A stretch of 40,829 nt of DNA from Escherichia phage P483, in sequence record NC_028822.1. One strand, given 5' to 3'. This document shows positions 2,954 through 40,829 of the stretch, piece by piece. Below the pieces are notes generated by a model. It did no database searches and was not told the DNA's origin. It saw only the letters and a list, made by a program, of their open reading frames with translations. Each line of letters begins with the position of its first letter. Within the stretch, counting starts at the first letter, position 1. The position numbers and the translations under genes are program-made.

Positions 2954-2976
2954 TTCCCCAATAGTGAGTCGTATTG
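2954..2976 (-). promoter_or_regulatory. Phage RNAP promoter phi17
   Basis: Minus strand reads CAATACGACTCACTATTGGGGAA. Confidence 0.85.
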
Positions 2977-2977
2977 T

Positions 2978-5900
2978 TTACTTCTTGTCAGCCTTAATGT
3001 GAACACCGTTGGCCTCATAGAACTTAATGAGCATCTGTTGAGAGATTGGGTCGTTAGGAATCATCTCTCGGTGAGCATTCATTAAGCCAGTCATCATCTC
3101 ACGCTCGGTCGGTTTGTTAGGAGCCGTAAGGACACCATAAGCATTTCGACCAGTAGCTAGAGCAGCACCAGCGAAGCCAAGAGCAGGAACCTGTTCACCA
3201 ATAGCGCCCATAATGGAATCACCCATGTCACGAGAAGTCACCGCCTTATTGCGTTCACGCTTGTCATCACCTTTCGGTAGAATCGTAGAGCGAACCATAA
3301 GACCTTGGTCGTAACCAGCAGCACCCATAGCGAAGTTAGCGATACTCAGAGGCGACCCAAGGTGTGAACTTCGGGAGGCCGCTGCGTAGGCAATCATCTT
3401 CGGGTCGAGAGCTTTCTTCAAGTAATCCTTCTGTTGCTCTTTAGGAAGACCAGCAGCTTTCAAGTGAGCCTGTGCCACGTAGTAGGAACCGGCAAGACCA
3501 CCAGAGATAGCATAGGTCAGAGCCATGTCCATAGCGCGATGGTTCTTAAAGGCTTCGTTGCCAGAGCGGATAAACTTAGAGTTCATCGACTTGATGACAA
3601 ACGATTTAAACTGAAGGACTAACTTAGCGGTAGCACCAAACGCATGGGAATCCTGTAAGGAAACCTTATGAGGTCTGAGCATCGTTTCATCAGCAACCTT
3701 ATCAGCTAAACGCCATAAGTCCATAGCACGAGGGTCATTAGCCAGAGCCTTCTTATCCTTGAAGGTGAACTTACCATCTTCACCACGAGTCACGTTCTCC
3801 CGGATGAGAGACTGAATGCCTTCCCACTGTTCCTTAGAGATACTCGCCGACTTCAGCATGTCACCTTTAATCCACTTGTTGGCACCCTTACCAGTGATAG
3901 CATGAGTTACCACATCGCCCATAACACCCTGACGGGCCATGTCCAGAAGGTAGTTTGACGTACCATTGAGGAACTTGGTTAGAGGTGAGCGAGCAGCCAG
4001 TTCTTGAGTTGTGTGCTTAATGGTCCCAACAACCTTTGCTGCAACATCAGGTGTATCAGTTGACTCACGGAGTCGCTGAATGATGTCTTGACGAGTCGGT
4101 CGGATTAACTGGTCGAACTCTTTACCGAACACCATAGAGTGGAGTTCTTTGAGTTCCTTACCGGAGACTGGCTTGTTGCGGAACGCTAAGTCACGCAGTG
4201 CCGGAATGCCATGAAGCATCGCACGGATATTACCCTTCGCCAACATACCGGAGATTTCAGTTAGGTTCTGCAAGCCCATGTATGCGTTCTTCGTAAAGAA
4301 GGACATATCGGACAGAGCACGAACCATAGTGTCACCTACAGTATCCTGATTACGTCGAGCACGACCAGTGAGAATCTTAACGGTATCCTTAAGTGCTTCC
4401 ACTTCACCTTTCATTGTGCCTTTACCTTCAGACTTCTTATCAAGAGCCATGATAGCGTCCTTGAGTTCAGCAGTAGTCTTGCCTGTACCTCCCATGATAG
4501 CAATATCACCATCAACACGGCGGTCATATGCTGGCATCACATGCTTCATATCGAAGTCACGGAGGTCATTCACAGAGAACTGTTGTCCATTCGGTAGAGT
4601 GACTGGCATGTCAGAATCAAACAGGTTACGGGCTTCAAGGAATGAGTTGTTCTCAATCCCAACGAGACCCTCAATGTTATCGTCAATGACACTTGAAGAG
4701 TTGAACTCATCGGTCTTCGCAATACCATAAGCCTTGTCCATAGCGTACTTCTCAGCCATCTGACTAAGCATAGCCTCTTCGTCTACCTTTGGTTCCACCT
4801 TCTCGTCTGTGCCAAACTTCTGGCGCTCTGAAGGTTTAGCCGGAGCAGCTTGTGCACCTTTGGCAGCAGAGGCGGCTTCTTCAGCTTCGGCGGTGGCTCT
4901 GGTGATTCTGTCTTGGACCTTAGTAGCCTGTCCTTTCATGTATTCGAGACGCTCTGTGTTAACACGGACGTGAGACTTCTGGGTCTCAATCATCTGCTTC
5001 CGGCTCTCAATCTTAACAGGAATGGTTTTGCTATTAGGTTTAGCAGCTAGTTTTTCTTCCAACTCCTTCAGCTTAGCCTCATGCGAAGCCAGTCTGTCCT
5101 TGGAGTTCTGGAGTTTCCTTTCACGGTCCGCAACTCGCTTCTCAGCGTTGGTCAGGACGTCTTTTAGTTCTGCTACCTTATCACTTGCCTGTGTAGCTGC
5201 ATCGTCCAGTTTCATCTGGTAACTGGCTGTGTCGACAGACTCTTGGCTTCTGAGGAAGTTCTCAGTGTCAGCCGCAAGTTTGGCATCAGCTTCAGCTTTG
5301 GAGAAAACGTCACTGTTAACCTGTTTAAGGTATTCATCAACACGGGCCTTAACTTCAGGACGTGAATGATAGGATGTCATCCAGCTTGCAGCAATCGCTT
5401 CCTGTAAACCATCAGAACCCCCAAGAGCCTGTGAGTACAACTGCTTGGCTTCCCGTGAGTACACATGAGGAACGTAAGTCCCTTTGTGACGACTGTTAGG
5501 GAAGATAGAGTTGGCCTTGTTACCGAACATCGACGGGTTCTCCATCATCTCACGCTTGAGGTCAAAGTGTTCCTTCATGATGTCCATCACCTTACGTTCT
5601 GCCTTTGTCAAGTTGGCCTGAAGTTCAGGTCTCTCGATAGCCACAGCAGCACGACGATAGATTTCTTGACGGGCACCTTGAGCACCACTCTTGAACATAC
5701 CCACAGACCACTCAGGGTCAGCCATCGCTTCCTTCATTGCACCATAGAGGTCATTGTAGGTTCGCTGGTTGTTACTGTGTAGGCGCTCTTTGATGTCTGA
5801 GGCGGTAGCCCCAAACTTACCATGTGAGCCAGACTCCATACCTGTAGGTGAGCGCACTAAGTCCTTAGCTAGTCCACGGATTTCAGCGTGTTCAGAACGT

Positions 5901-7450
5901 AGAGTTCTCAAGCCGATTTCACTCAGGCCACGCATAGGCAATCCCCAAGCAGCACGTTCAGGGTCTACCTCGGCAAACTCTCTGGCTGTCATAGGGTTCG
6001 CTAGGTTAGTATCACTAATAATGGAACCATCACGCAGCACTACAGCACCCGGTTCAGTTTCCAGTGGTGCATACTCAACGCCGTTGTGCTGTGAGAACAC
6101 TCGGTCTTCACTAGGAGGCATACGGCTTGCGTCATAACCACCAGTGTTACGTGCAGTCTCACGAGCCTCAAAGCGCATCTGTGCAGCAGCAAAGGGGTTC
6201 TCAATCTGTTCAGCACCAGACTTACGGAGACCAGCGGCAACACCATCTGCCACAGCAGTCAGTCCACCAGCCAGTAACATCCCAGCAAGGGCAGCTTCAG
6301 CATAGTGTGCATTGCCACCTGCAACCGATGTACGCAGACCTTCAGAGGCAACGTTAAGTGCACCAGCTTGAGCACCCACCATCAATGCCTTGTTCACCAG
6401 TTTGAATCCCTTGGCTGTACTCCCTGCGAGTGGGACGTAGGTCAACGGGTCCACACCAGCACCAATCAGGCCAGCAGACAGCTTGGCACCAAGTCCAGCA
6501 TCAGCAGCCTTAGCATCAGCCTCGAAGTTCTCGTTAGCCATTTTGATTAGCTCGTCAAGGTTCTCAGCGGAACCACCGAGTACAACGTTCATGTACGCAG
6601 GGTTCTTTACTTCAGTCCGAATCTTCTCCAGTTCTTCAGGCGACCATATGTGGCTATTAAACCGTGTCGGTTGAAGTACATCAGTGAGCACATCAAAACC
6701 ATTGTCACGCTTACCAGCACGGAAGGCAACACCCAAGGTTGAGTTGGAGAGTTCTGCTTCAGCAGCACTACCGAATCCGAAGAAGGTTGAACGCTCATTG
6801 GCTTCGTCAAGAGTTGTTCCTTTTGCTTCCCAATAGTCTTTACCGAACGGCTGATTGGGAGCGGCCTGTTCTTTACCTTGAAAGGACATTGAGTGAGACT
6901 CAGGGAGTTCTGTAGTTACCTTTCCTTTCTTCCCGATACCACTCATAGCAGCATCGAACGGAATCCCTTTACCCTTTGGGGTGATACCACCGAAGGACTC
7001 AATGTCACCACTCTTAGGAGACTTAGCGACATCCAGAAGTGAGCGAAGATAGTTACGCCCTTCGTCACCGATACCAGCAAAGTTACCGGAGTCATAGGCT
7101 TCCAATTGAGGTTTACCAGTACGTCCCTCGCCTTGGTTGTACGCTAGTGCAGCTTTAAGTTCATCCCCATTGTATTTCTTAACGAGGTCTGCAAGGTAAC
7201 GAGCACCTGCATCGATTGACTTAGCCGGGTCGTTGAAGTCCTCATCAGACTGTAGGCCGTAAGCCTGACCAGTTGCCTTAGTGAACTGCATGACACCTCG
7301 TGGCCCTGTTGGTGATTGGGCCGTAGGTTTGAATCGGGACTCTACCCAACCGACCTTCCGAAGAAGGCCATAGGAGACTCCATGTGTGTCAGCAGCTTGT
7401 TGAAATAACGCATCATATTCATGCGGTTCGTTCGGGTTATACTTATCCAC
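2978..7450 (-). CDS. 16: Internal virion protein D (T7 gp16-like) with N-terminal lytic transglycosylase domain
   Basis: 1490 aa; GTG start with SD TAGGAGGT; N-terminus MDKYNPNEP...MQFTKAT and much of the body align with T7 gp16 as recalled; about 180 extra residues inserted. Confidence 0.9.
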   Translation of the reverse strand: MDKYNPNEPHEYDALFQQAADTHGVSYGLLRKVGWVESRFKPTAQSPTGPRGVMQFTKATGQAYGLQSDEDFNDPAKSIDAGARYLADLVKKYNGDELKAALAYNQGEGRTGKPQLEAYDSGNFAGIGDEGRNYLRSLLDVAKSPKSGDIESFGGITPKGKGIPFDAAMSGIGKKGKVTTELPESHSMSFQGKEQAAPNQPFGKDYWEAKGTTLDEANERSTFFGFGSAAEAELSNSTLGVAFRAGKRDNGFDVLTDVLQPTRFNSHIWSPEELEKIRTEVKNPAYMNVVLGGSAENLDELIKMANENFEADAKAADAGLGAKLSAGLIGAGVDPLTYVPLAGSTAKGFKLVNKALMVGAQAGALNVASEGLRTSVAGGNAHYAEAALAGMLLAGGLTAVADGVAAGLRKSGAEQIENPFAAAQMRFEARETARNTGGYDASRMPPSEDRVFSQHNGVEYAPLETEPGAVVLRDGSIISDTNLANPMTAREFAEVDPERAAWGLPMRGLSEIGLRTLRSEHAEIRGLAKDLVRSPTGMESGSHGKFGATASDIKERLHSNNQRTYNDLYGAMKEAMADPEWSVGMFKSGAQGARQEIYRRAAVAIERPELQANLTKAERKVMDIMKEHFDLKREMMENPSMFGNKANSIFPNSRHKGTYVPHVYSREAKQLYSQALGGSDGLQEAIAASWMTSYHSRPEVKARVDEYLKQVNSDVFSKAEADAKLAADTENFLRSQESVDTASYQMKLDDAATQASDKVAELKDVLTNAEKRVADRERKLQNSKDRLASHEAKLKELEEKLAAKPNSKTIPVKIESRKQMIETQKSHVRVNTERLEYMKGQATKVQDRITRATAEAEEAASAAKGAQAAPAKPSERQKFGTDEKVEPKVDEEAMLSQMAEKYAMDKAYGIAKTDEFNSSSVIDDNIEGLVGIENNSFLEARNLFDSDMPVTLPNGQQFSVNDLRDFDMKHVMPAYDRRVDGDIAIMGGTGKTTAELKDAIMALDKKSEGKGTMKGEVEALKDTVKILTGRARRNQDTVGDTMVRALSDMSFFTKNAYMGLQNLTEISGMLAKGNIRAMLHGIPALRDLAFRNKPVSGKELKELHSMVFGKEFDQLIRPTRQDIIQRLRESTDTPDVAAKVVGTIKHTTQELAARSPLTKFLNGTSNYLLDMARQGVMGDVVTHAITGKGANKWIKGDMLKSASISKEQWEGIQSLIRENVTRGEDGKFTFKDKKALANDPRAMDLWRLADKVADETMLRPHKVSLQDSHAFGATAKLVLQFKSFVIKSMNSKFIRSGNEAFKNHRAMDMALTYAISGGLAGSYYVAQAHLKAAGLPKEQQKDYLKKALDPKMIAYAAASRSSHLGSPLSIANFAMGAAGYDQGLMVRSTILPKGDDKRERNKAVTSRDMGDSIMGAIGEQVPALGFAGAALATGRNAYGVLTAPNKPTEREMMTGLMNAHREMIPNDPISQQMLIKFYEANGVHIKADKK

Positions 7451-37981: not shown

Positions 37982-38004
37982 CTTCCCAATAGTGAGTCGT
38001 ATTA
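37982..38004 (-). promoter_or_regulatory. Phage RNAP promoter phiOR
   Basis: Minus strand reads TAATACGACTCACTATTGGGAAG, downstream of the terminase gene. Confidence 0.85.
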
Positions 38005-38091: not shown

Positions 38092-39849
38092 TTACCACTC
38101 AATGAAGCAGCTAGAATCTCCATCGTCCTCGTAGTAGATGTCCACGCCACCAACATCGTAGCTATGGATAGCATCACCACCAACGGTCTGTTTCTCCATG
38201 TGGTGTTCAAGGAACTCAAGGGTCATCTCTTCTTCACCTACACGGCTGTCCACAAGCATCCCTTCACGCAGGAACTCGATACCCAATGCGATAGCATCAA
38301 GTCGGTCATCGTGTGCCACAGCGCCTCGCTCACGGGTCATACGGGTCATCTGATAGAACGCACTGTAGCGAACATCATGTTTCCCATCAAGGTCACGAGC
38401 AGTCTGGTAGTCCTCACGGATAACCTCATCACGAATGACCAGCTTGTGCGCACCCATCAACGGTTCGATAGTATCGCAGATTCGCATCTCCTTCATGCCT
38501 TTAGCACGGATTTCCTCTAAGGCACACTTGTGATGCTTCAGGAGAATCGGAGAGAAAATCTTACCGAACATACCGTCACCGAAGTTGGACTCGTGGACTA
38601 CTGTCTGTACATTCCACTGCTTGGCCTTCTTAGCGAGCTTCTCTAGGGTAGCATCATCGTAACCACCACGGAACCCACCGACTTCCATCAAGTAGATATA
38701 ACCGTTAAGTGAGTAGAGGACTGCGTACCCGGTCTCATCCTTACCACGACCACTTGGGTCAATGACCAGAATCTTAGACTGATACTCAGCGGTACGAGAA
38801 GAGCACGTATGGAACGCATGGATGTCATCACCCTTCAGACCAACGTTAGGGAGTTCCTCATTGCGGTTCTGACGGTTCGGCAACCACTGGTAAGACAATG
38901 GGGCACGTTCAGGGTCCACAGCGCACACGATAGCGTCACGGAGTCGTAGCGGGTACTTCTCGGCATCACTAAGGTTCGGGTTAAGCATGAACTGAAGCGT
39001 GTAGCCAGCTTTGCCATATTCGAGTTCACGTTCACGGAGGTCATCCATGTCGAATCGAATAGGGTCAGTAGGTTGACCACGAAGTAACTCGAAGCCTTCA
39101 TCGTATTCAGCCTTAAGCATCGGAGCCAAGCGGTCCCCATAGTAGAGAGCCTCAGCATCATTACGTGGATACTGTGCAGGCCAGATTACCGTACTGTACC
39201 CTTTGTTATCCTCAAGTTCCTTGTAGAGCGTCATCTCGGTTTGAGGTGTGCCAAGGTAGATAACACGAGAGGTAGGCAGCGGCTTAAGTAATGCAGCGAA
39301 CTCAGTTACCAACGTCCAGAGCTTCTCACGAGCAGAACTCGTAGAGCTATTACCGGGAACCTCAACGTCATCTGCGATAATAATGTCAGCACGGCTACCA
39401 GTTAACTGACCAGTAATACCTACAGACTTCACAGAGGGTGAGTGGTCGGGTTTCGCCAAGCCAACGTCAAAGCTAATAACAGAGTCACGCTGTCCCGGTC
39501 GAGGTTTCAACTCAGAGAGGAACGGAAGGAGGTCGATGATGTTCTTAATGAAGATGGAGTTAGCGTCCGCACGTTCCTTAGAGGCAGACACGATGAGAAC
39601 CTTAAGTTGAGGGTCACGCCATAAGACCCACACGACGAACGCACAGGTGATAAAGGACTTGCCGATACCACGGAACGCCTGAAGGATAAACTTCTTGTGG
39701 TCGCCGTTAGCGAGTGTACGTGCCATATCAATCTGACACTTGGTTGGTTTAGGTAAGTTCAGAGCCTTCCATAAGACGAACAGGAAGGCCACGAAGTCAC
39801 CCTTAAGTTGCGCCACGATGAGCGCATTCTTGTTTGCTTGAGTAGACAT
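38092..39849 (-). CDS. 19: Terminase large subunit / DNA maturase B (T7 gp19-like)
   Basis: 585 aa (T7 gp19 is 586 aa); Walker-type ATPase and nuclease regions; SD TAGGAGG. Confidence 0.95.
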
Positions 39850-39864
39850 TGTGGCCTCCTATTG

Positions 39865-40422
39865 TTACTCGGCAGGTTTCTCTAAGGCAGCAATGCGCTT
39901 CTCAAGAGCCTTGATAGTGTCGGTCTTAGATACAGCCCCGTCGATGTTACTAGGTTGGAACATAACGGAAACGCTCTTCCCTTCGCTATCCACGAACTGT
40001 GTACCAAATTCACTATCAGACGCAGAAAGCGTTGCACTAACTAAGGAAGCCATACCACCTTCAGGTTCAGGGTCAGCACCAGTCCACTCTTTGTATACGT
40101 CGATTCGAACCATACCGAGTCGCTCAGTGCTTTGCTCATTCAGGAACACCGTCATGAACCCGCTACCCGGTTTAGACTCGACGGAGCCACCCCAAGTGGA
40201 CATAAGGGTCTCGAACGTAGCGTGTTGCTCAGTGGTGCCATCACTCAGTTGGATAACGTATTCAACCTTAGAGTAGCCCTCAACCTTAACCATCTCCGAA
40301 GCTGGGATGTCGATACGCCCAACACGAAGACCAATATTGTTGCGGTCGTACACATCACGACTGTCTGGTGAGCGACCATTGATGGTCCATAGTGTGCGGG
40401 TTCTTGAGTTTGTAGTAGCCAT
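39865..40422 (-). CDS. Hypothetical late protein inserted between Rz/Rz1 and terminase large subunit (no T7/T3 counterpart recognised)
   Basis: 185 aa ORF, ATG 40422 preceded by SD GAAGGAGAAG at optimal spacing; starts 3 nt after the Rz stop and ends 16 nt before the gene 19 start; no TM segment, no Cys, C-terminal amphipathic helix. Confidence 0.75.
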   Translation of the reverse strand: MATTNSRTRTLWTINGRSPDSRDVYDRNNIGLRVGRIDIPASEMVKVEGYSKVEYVIQLSDGTTEQHATFETLMSTWGGSVESKPGSGFMTVFLNEQSTERLGMVRIDVYKEWTGADPEPEGGMASLVSATLSASDSEFGTQFVDSEGKSVSVMFQPSNIDGAVSKTDTIKALEKRIAALEKPAE

Positions 40423-40424
40423 AA

Positions 40425-40829
40425 TTACTTCTCCTTCTTAGCTTGCATTTCAGTTATTGTATTTTGGAGCGCCTTAATCCACGCATCCCCTCTTTGAGTT
40501 ACTCCGATAAGACGCTTACTAAACTCTTCGTCAAGTTCGGCTCGACCATCAACGAGGCATCCACCATTAGCTTGGAGTTCTCGTGTGGTGGCTGATAGTT
40601 TGACGCGCAAGCGCTTACCATCGTTACGCAAATCATTAATGACCCTATCAGTGCTGCCCTCCAGCGCCGCAAGGTCTTCTTGGTATTGTCGTGAGATTTC
40701 GTTGATAGCAGCTTGTTTATCCTCAGTCGCCTTAACTTTCTTAACGTACTCATTGTGCACCTCCTGTTCCCATTTAGTGTTAGCTTTGTCATAGCCGTGG
40801 TTATACGCAAGGGTAACACCCAAGGCAAA
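40425..40829 (-). CDS. 18.5: i-spanin Rz (T7 gp18.5-like), 3' part; the 5' end lies beyond the window end (equivalent to 1..265)
   Basis: Continuous with the copy at the window start; resembles T7 gp18.5 as recalled. Confidence 0.8.
   Translation of the reverse strand, partial: FALGVTLAYNHGYDKANTKWEQEVHNEYVKKVKATEDKQAAINEISRQYQEDLAALEGSTDRVINDLRNDGKRLRVKLSATTRELQANGGCLVDGRAELDEEFSKRLIGVTQRGDAWIKALQNTITEMQAKKEK
40499..40753 (-). CDS. 18.7: o-spanin Rz1 (T7 gp18.7-like), embedded in Rz in the +1 frame
   Basis: ATG 40753 with SD GGAGGTG; MSTLRKLRRLRINK...LIGSLMICVTMVSACAS (lipoprotein signal and Cys) ...SLMVEPNLT resembles T7 gp18.7 as recalled. Confidence 0.8.
   Translation of the reverse strand: MSTLRKLRRLRINKLLSTKSHDNTKKTLRRWRAALIGSLMICVTMVSACASNYQPPHENSKLMVDASLMVEPNLTKSLVSVLSE
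40604..40829. repeat. 226-bp exact duplication of window positions 1-226 (circular-permutation overlap, not a biological repeat)
   Basis: Direct comparison of window start and end. Confidence 0.95.

Follow-up and report, generated by a model that had tools for sequence, protein, structure and literature searches.

Escherichia phage P483 carries, between its spanin genes and its terminase large subunit gene, an additional gene, here called 18.9, whose product may be a non-essential accessory fibre or decoration protein of the virion with a new anchoring domain. We hold this to be a real possibility, although it falls short of being probable. The reading is built on an N-terminal domain that is conserved while the distal part is exchangeable, on tail-fibre modules in the distal part of relatives, on a C-terminal helix which could oligomerise the protein, and on late co-expression with virion genes combined with dispensability. 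The superfamily to which the protein belongs was named after gp18.9 of Erwinia phage L1. Positions given below refer to the window, i.e., the whole P483 record of 40,829 nt.

Location and expression of gene 18.9

P483 is a Berlinvirus (Studiervirinae, T7-like) with its genes on the minus strand, and the genomes closest to it are those of nasanit, P151, CarlSpitteler, P694, S523, and WW1. The first-pass annotation, which gave no strand, had reported a 185-codon reading frame filling the junction between Rz and gene 19. We confirmed this frame at 39865-40422 on the minus strand, with an ATG start, 185 codons and a TAA stop. Its product of 20.2 kDa and pI 4.8 is 100% identical to hypothetical protein P483_44, and no paralogue was found elsewhere in the P483 genome. 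The TAA stop of Rz (40425-40427) lies two bases upstream of the 18.9 ATG (40420-40422), while the 18.9 stop (39865-39867) is situated 15 bases upstream of the ATG of gene 19 at 39849. Gene 19, encoding the terminase large subunit (38092-39849, minus strand), has its own Shine-Dalgarno sequence, TAGGAGG, within this 15-nt spacer. On the other side, the C-terminal 134 codons of Rz (gene 18.5, i-spanin) occupy 40425-40829 on the minus strand and the start of the gene is found at 263-265, so that Rz is split by the ends of the record and is not readable contiguously. Rz1 (gene 18.7, o-spanin; 40499-40753, minus strand) is embedded in Rz in another frame, carries the lipobox VSAC and corresponds to the BA14 annotation. 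The first 226 bases of the record (1-226) and its final 226 (40604-40829) are identical. Since this duplication falls inside Rz, away from the position of a T7-type terminal repeat, the record has the look of an assembly that was circularly permuted and whose overlapping ends were left untrimmed; with the overlap removed, 40,603 bp of unique sequence would remain.

The Shine-Dalgarno site of 18.9, GAAGGAGA (40430-40437, minus strand), lies within the final Rz codons at a distance of 7 nt from the ATG, and the sequence upstream of the gene reads GAAGGAGAAGTAATTATG, as first noted. The site had been considered one of the strongest in the genome, which did not hold when all sites were ranked. Its pairing with the anti-Shine-Dalgarno sequence, -8.8 kcal/mol, is the same as for the major capsid gene, which shares the GAAGGAGA core, and the AGGAGG sites of at least 15 genes pair more strongly, at -10 to -12.9. 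The 18.9 site is thus canonical and of middle rank, approximately 24th to 25th among 52 reading frames on the gene strand. The earlier suggestion of a high-copy late product is weakened accordingly, as the strength of the site gives no sign of high copy number.

Phage promoters were searched for with a 21-mer BA14-type consensus over the whole genome, which gave 11 sites against 0 expected by chance. The nearest promoter for the phage RNA polymerase upstream of 18.9 is located at 2956-2976 (minus strand), in the phi17 position, and reads through genes 17, 17.5, 18, 18.5/18.7, 18.9, and 19 across the record junction. The next one, of phiOR type and in agreement with the phiOR annotation of BA14, lies downstream of gene 19 at 37984-38004 (minus strand). 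The consensus scan found no phage promoter between these two sites in the direction of transcription, and no terminator-like hairpin was found on the coding strand. Both scans bear out the earlier remark that 18.9 has no promoter or terminator of its own, and the layout implies co-transcription with genes 17, 17.5, 18, 18.5/18.7, and 19, supporting the expected late transcription together with lysis and packaging genes. By its promoter context 18.9 is a class III (late) gene of a T7-like phage.

Selection and distribution

Values of dN/dS were between 0.10 and 0.51 in all 15 pairs of six close homologues (P483, BA14, 285P, BSP161, S523, and FE44). By these values, and by homologues at the same locus down to approximately 20% identity, 18.9 is a real gene under purifying selection and not a chance reading frame. 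Searches with tblastn found the protein at exactly the same locus in 56 phage records, all of which annotate it as "hypothetical" or "unknown product". Fifteen full-length matches with 92-98% identity came from Escherichia, Erwinia, Salmonella, and Enterobacter phages, and the frame was intact in 15 of the 16 records of the 185-aa type. The remaining records were mostly from phages of Yersinia pestis and Y. pseudotuberculosis; in most of these the similarity is limited to residues 4-121, with about 65% identity, and the protein is 256 aa long. The family is rare on a global scale, with 18 clusters among 5.8 billion proteins, and a profile search gave 23 representative clusters at E <= 0.001 among 1.84 billion proteins. 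The P483 protein matched PHROG 20446 (E 5e-129) and PHROG 27102 (E 2e-47). Given the 56 records, the two PHROG families and the named gp18.9 of Erwinia phage L1, the uniqueness implied by the first-pass annotation could not be upheld. The homology search that it had proposed did return homologues at this locus, none of them with a known function.

A second family, which we call the L1 type, was found in 14 phage records, with members in Erwinia phage vB_EamP-L1 (gp18.9, HQ728265), Dickeya phage JA10 (JA10_048), Pantoea phages SK1 and Bubbas, Klebsiella phage Sibilus, and the pEp_SNUABM phages of Erwinia. Alignment of the N-terminal domains of the P483-type and L1-type families by hhalign gave a probability of 96.6% and an E-value of 6.3e-10 over 107 columns. 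L1 gp18.9 and the P483 protein have the same locus (Rz/Rz1, the gene, terL), a homologous N-terminal domain and a similar size, the L1-type proteins being about 200-226 aa long. They differ in that the identity of the N-terminal domains is only about 17-23%, and the distal part of the L1 type, with its YTKAEVD motif, a stretch of helix and a C-terminal domain that matches PHROG 5004, is unlike that of P483. Intermediates between the two families were found as well. The metagenomic homologues P0028, P0052, and P0053 combine the P483-type N-terminal motif (DSRE...GRID) with the L1-type C-terminal domain (PHROG 5004), and the C-terminus of P0028 is that of Erwinia phage L1 gp18.9. As read from their domain composition, these three chimeras give direct evidence that the two subfamilies have recombined at the hinge.

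The order Rz, 18.9-type gene, terL was the same in all contexts examined, i.e., in BA14, the Yersinia phages, L1, JA10, Bubbas, and six metagenomic contigs, and the synteny comparison proposed at first sight of the gene thus gave one order in every carrier examined. The six contigs, which hold homologues P0019, P0011, P0027, P0028, P0033, and P0056, carry, in this order, gp17, holin, terS, Rz, the 18.9-type gene, and terL. In the alignment of all members only W12, D26, G31, G35, G62, and G103 are nearly invariant. Because the shared positions are core glycine, tryptophan and hydrophobic residues and form no polar catalytic constellation, they fit a scaffold or docking domain and not an enzyme. 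In this way the N-terminal domain has persisted at about 20% identity in three genera or more. On the basis of these comparisons, PHROG 20446, PHROG 27102, and the Erwinia gp18.9 proteins are one small superfamily, found only in Studiervirinae and at a fixed locus.

Conserved N-terminal domain and exchangeable distal part

The general features of the protein agreed with its first description. It has no cysteine and no transmembrane segment, the maximum Kyte-Doolittle value of a 19-residue window being 0.47; its centre is acidic and rich in glycine, serine and threonine (33% G+S+T in residues 116-160); and it ends in an amphipathic helix with I, L, I, and L in the heptad a/d positions. The AlphaFold model of the P483 protein had a mean pLDDT of 79. 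Residues 1-115 were modelled as a confident beta-rich domain with one helix (pLDDT of the N-terminal domain 74-92), followed by three strands in residues 127-155 and a helix in residues 167-180.

The N-terminal domain (residues 1-118; 40069-40422, minus strand) is the conserved and family-defining part, and it is proposed here as the virion anchor. The P483-type family alignment, with identities down to 44%, has 26 invariant columns, among them R17, D20, S21, R22, D26, R36, D38, G49, Y50, K52-Y55, G86, S87, G103, K111, E112, D117, and P118. The conserved block ends with DPEPE (residues 117-121; 40060-40074, minus strand), a hinge that marks the boundary between conserved and exchangeable sequence: D117 and P118 are invariant, divergence begins right after them, and past the hinge the homologues split into unrelated sequence classes. 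In P483 the hinge is followed by a variable middle part (residues 122-160; 39943-40059, minus strand), an acidic, Ser/Gly/Thr-rich three-strand beta meander which occurs only in the group of BA14, 285P, and P483. The C-terminal segment (residues 161-185; 39868-39942, minus strand) contains the amphipathic helix TIKALEKRIAALEK, which is probably an oligomerising coiled coil judging by its heptads. A helix of the form IAxLEKRIxALEKPA is common to many of the long variants and is present as a tandem duplicate in homologue P0004, where it resembles the segmented shafts of fibres.

Several relatives carry fibre-like modules behind the hinge. The middle domain of the 256-aa variant from Yersinia phages matches PHROG 6578 "tail fiber", and in tblastn it hit genes for tail fibres or lateral tail fibres in rV5-like coliphages, in Xanthomonas phage RTH11 (E 5e-8), and in Salmonella phage SP01. 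In a profile search the same domain also matched repeated domains of bacterial RTX/cadherin-type adhesins. The AlphaFold model of this variant was set aside, since pLDDT values of 33-53 in the middle domain were too poor. In homologue P0011, residues 114-219 match positions 140-245 of PHROG 4242 "tail fiber" (E 5.5e-9), and the same segment aligns to the junction of N-terminal domain and shaft in the gp17 that lies on the P0011 contig (ADPxxDxDAVxL; E 1e-4). The 185-aa form of P483 is without tail-fibre-like modules; its distal part, just 65 residues long, is related to nothing outside its own group. BLASTP of the P483 protein against P483 gp17 gave no similarity (E >= 3.5).

Absence and deletion of the gene

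The gene is cleanly absent from P694, ErnstBeyeler, RN5i1, and WW1. Rz overlaps terL in these four phages in the T7 manner, in line with the earlier statement that 18.9 is additional to the gene set of T7 and T3. In Carena the product of car1b_004 (1013-1240), annotated as a "hypothetical protein" of 75 aa, is an in-frame deletion allele in which residues 1-42 are fused to residues 152-185, with the junction at a short S-x-V/M microhomology. Judged by what it has lost, the allele is a natural near-null. Carena has been reported as 93.4% identical to CarlSpitteler, which carries 18.9 (PMC10927641). From the four Berlinviruses that do without the gene and the deletion in Carena we infer that 18.9 is dispensable in nature, which fits an accessory virion protein.

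The search for a docking partner through co-variation was dropped, as the type of gp12 did not track the presence of 18.9. Proteins at least 90% identical to gp12 are present in both carriers and non-carriers, the shared ones reaching 92% or more, and the capsid and portal proteins of the non-carrier P694 and of Carena are at least 97% identical to those of P483. With gp12, capsid and portal shared across carriers and non-carriers, no partner is deducible in this way.

Some further differences were observed among these genomes. Between P694 (185-562 region) and P483 (880-2904), gp17 has 43% identity, gp12 76%, and gp7.3 a partial match only; P694 also has an extra reading frame of 125 aa after the fibre gene, and its capsid, portal, and terminase proteins are at least 97% identical to those of P483. 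The differences lie mainly in the adsorption apparatus and suggest that phages which are otherwise close have exchanged the tail module; as they come from a single pair, they name no docking partner. The internal core/ejectosome protein gp16 (gene 16; 2978-7450, minus strand) is 1490 aa long in P483 and 1315 aa in P694. The P483 protein has an insertion of 177 residues (712-888), highly charged and helical-looking, which is also found in Carena (1430 aa). Pfam recognised in P483 gp16 only the N-terminal SLT domain, with no intein and no nuclease. In several relatives an HNH homing-endonuclease gene lies right downstream of terL (L003, 5380-5838; L024, 2795-3241; L011, 6311-6703; and L012, 8551-8997), where P483 has none. 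Presence or absence thus varies independently at two loci, 18.9 and HNH, near the right end of these genomes.

Searches for known families and folds

The protein had not been recognised in the first reading of the sequence, and family searches left it so. For the P483 protein, Pfam and PADLOC gave no match at E <= 1 and NCBIfam gave no match, and all three gave nothing for diverse homologues. Structure prediction and Foldseek, suggested earlier as a check, were carried out with the AlphaFold model; comparison against PDB and BFVD gave nothing significant outside the protein's own family. The fold of the N-terminal domain has a weak, non-significant similarity to carbohydrate-binding modules and to the tips of receptor-binding proteins. 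The only PDB profile match, 8fjf chain A ("H10"; E 2e-5), consists of three repeated stretches and was rejected as convergent or spurious. It covers positions 49-83 of the superfamily alignment, a beta-hairpin and helix (xEYxVxDGxGxxxxFxxLxEAxxxxK) in the AlphaFold model, and the match shows this predicted segment to be an idealised beta-beta-alpha unit. A match of the C-terminal helix to PHROG 1857 "head-tail connector" (E 0.011) was considered coiled-coil noise; no small virion protein of P483 belongs to PHROG 1857.

Comparison with several known classes likewise brought no match. A spanin or other lysis protein does not agree with the absence of a transmembrane segment, of cysteine and a lipobox, and of any Pfam match, Phage_lysis included. 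Neither Pfam nor NCBIfam found an HNH, GIY-YIG or LAGLIDADG domain of a homing endonuclease or mobile reading frame, and the HNH genes of relatives are located downstream of terL. The protein does not look like a tail fibre of T7 type, having no similarity to its own gp17 and no PF03906 (Phage_T7_tail) domain, the part with which such fibres dock on gp11/gp12. No fold or sequence similarity was found to the known capsid decoration proteins (Dec, gpD, Soc, Hoc, pb10, alpha-claw/alpha-paw). In the covered literature on Berlinvirus, BA14, 285P, FE44, Yep-phi, the BASEL phages, and L1 gp18.9, no functional, genetic, proteomic or structural work, cryo-EM included, was found for any member of the family.

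Discussion

The first-pass annotation had offered three roles for the product, namely a virion accessory or decoration protein, a lysis-timing factor, and a late anti-defence or exclusion protein. We infer that the first of these fits best, in view of the fibre modules in homologues and the conserved N-terminal domain with its exchangeable distal part. An anchor with an exchangeable tip is the typical architecture of phage fibres. In the proposed mechanism, the N-terminal domain would attach the protein to a conserved part of the virion surface, on capsid or tail, and the C-terminal helix would oligomerise it. The distal part, replaced in relatives by modules common to tail fibres, would project as a short fibre and provide an auxiliary, low-affinity adhesion to structures on the host surface or in the environment. 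Such adhesion would be useful in natural habitats and dispensable on laboratory hosts, as with T4 Hoc, the head fibres of phi29, and the alpha-paw of PhiM1. Against this reading stand the missing fibre modules of the P483 form itself, the weak fold matches, the failure of co-variation to name a docking partner and the ordinary Shine-Dalgarno site; conserved flanks around a variable middle could also come partly from recombination between conserved neighbour genes and not from function.

Decoration proteins with fibrous arms have precedents within the Autographiviridae, in PhiM1 and HRP29 (PMC11440229). PhiM1 alpha-paw (gp43), phi29 gp8.5, T4 Hoc, T5 pb10, and Dec of phage L are non-essential, late, small and modular, and they combine one module for capsid binding with one that projects, a plan which the 18.9 protein would share. 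Weak adhesion has been proposed for these proteins, and none resembles the 18.9 protein in fold or sequence. Binding is by an alpha-helical claw in the proteins of PhiM1 and HRP29, but the N-terminal domain of 18.9 is beta-rich. A similar plan is seen in gp17, where a conserved N-terminal domain is followed by an exchangeable fibrous distal part, and P0011 even carries a junction-and-shaft segment of gp17 type. However, gp17, with its PF03906 N-terminal domain, trimeric coiled-coil shaft and C-terminal beta-sandwich tip, is 674 aa long compared to 185 aa for the 18.9 protein, and it is the essential primary receptor-binding protein, whereas 18.9 is dispensable. Additional host-interaction proteins encoded outside the gene 17 position are found in T7-like genomes, as in the second receptor-binding proteins (RBP2) of KP32 type and the tailspike pairs of SP6 and K1-5. 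These are large and enzymatic and dock via a short N-terminal peptide or an adaptor, in contrast to the 18.9 protein, which is small, without an enzymatic domain, and has a globular N-terminal domain of 118 residues.

It is conceivable, if unlikely, that the product is instead a non-structural late protein which stays out of virions and acts inside the cell, as an accessory of spanin lysis or its timing, as a packaging accessory, or as a late anti-defence or decoy protein. The gene always lies directly downstream of Rz and directly upstream of terL, with probably a translational link to Rz, and a soluble, acidic protein without a signal peptide and without fold similarity to known virion proteins would suit such a role; dispensability and patchy distribution are also common to many counter-defence genes. 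Yet an intracellular regulator would have no obvious use for the tail-fibre and extracellular adhesin modules seen in homologues, and the protein matches no lysis, packaging or defence-related family. The known anti-defence genes of the T7 group are, moreover, early or middle genes.

The same fibre and adhesin modules, the weak similarity of the N-terminal domain to carbohydrate-binding modules and receptor-binding tips, and the late expression in one operon with lysis genes could also speak for a soluble protein resembling a receptor-binding protein, which is released at lysis and coats receptors on debris or neighbouring cells, keeping the progeny from being lost on dead cells or excluding competing phages. 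Its purpose would be analogous to that of T5 Llp, without the membrane targeting. We consider this quite improbable: the fold matches are not significant, a conserved N-terminal domain with a variable distal part is the usual pattern of virion-anchored fibres and not of free binders, and we know of no precedent for a released receptor-coating protein in T7-like phages. Purifying selection (dN/dS 0.1-0.5), the 26 invariant columns at identities down to 44%, the persistence of the N-terminal domain in three or more genera at about 20% identity, and the intact frame of 15 among the 16 records with the 185-aa form all argue against a decaying or functionless remnant of recombination, such as a captured fibre fragment kept only by its position between two essential genes. 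This last explanation has very little probability in our view, although the frequent loss of the gene, the internal in-frame deletion in Carena and the mosaic of borrowed modules in homologues would agree with it.

Returning to the accessory fibre, the gp18.9 superfamily is unstudied, narrowly distributed and locked to one locus, and it may represent a further form of accessory fibre in phages. A broader proposal, which we regard as speculative and somewhat doubtful, is that gp18.9 represents an unrecognised class of exchangeable accessory adhesins of T7-like phages, either plugged into the virion via the new beta-domain or freed at lysis to coat receptors, in which swaps behind the DPEPE hinge would retune binding to host or environment independently of gp17.

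The practical gain is the unification of two PHROG families and the Erwinia gp18.9 proteins at one fixed locus, with P694, ErnstBeyeler, and Carena as natural null alleles for comparison. Should the product be a non-structural late factor, 18.9 would simply join the many accessory genes that are orphans. Podovirus structure is studied with T7-like phages as its reference, and the list of their virion parts is regarded as complete. A conserved, dispensable surface protein with a new anchor and tips derived from tail fibres would, if true, add a component to that list, the DPEPE hinge would be a natural site for display and engineering, and the gene could help to explain differences in host range or persistence among the near-identical Berlinviruses used in plague diagnostics and phage therapy. 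If the adhesin reading is true, gp18.9 would be a second, hidden determinant of host range or persistence in the best-studied phage group.
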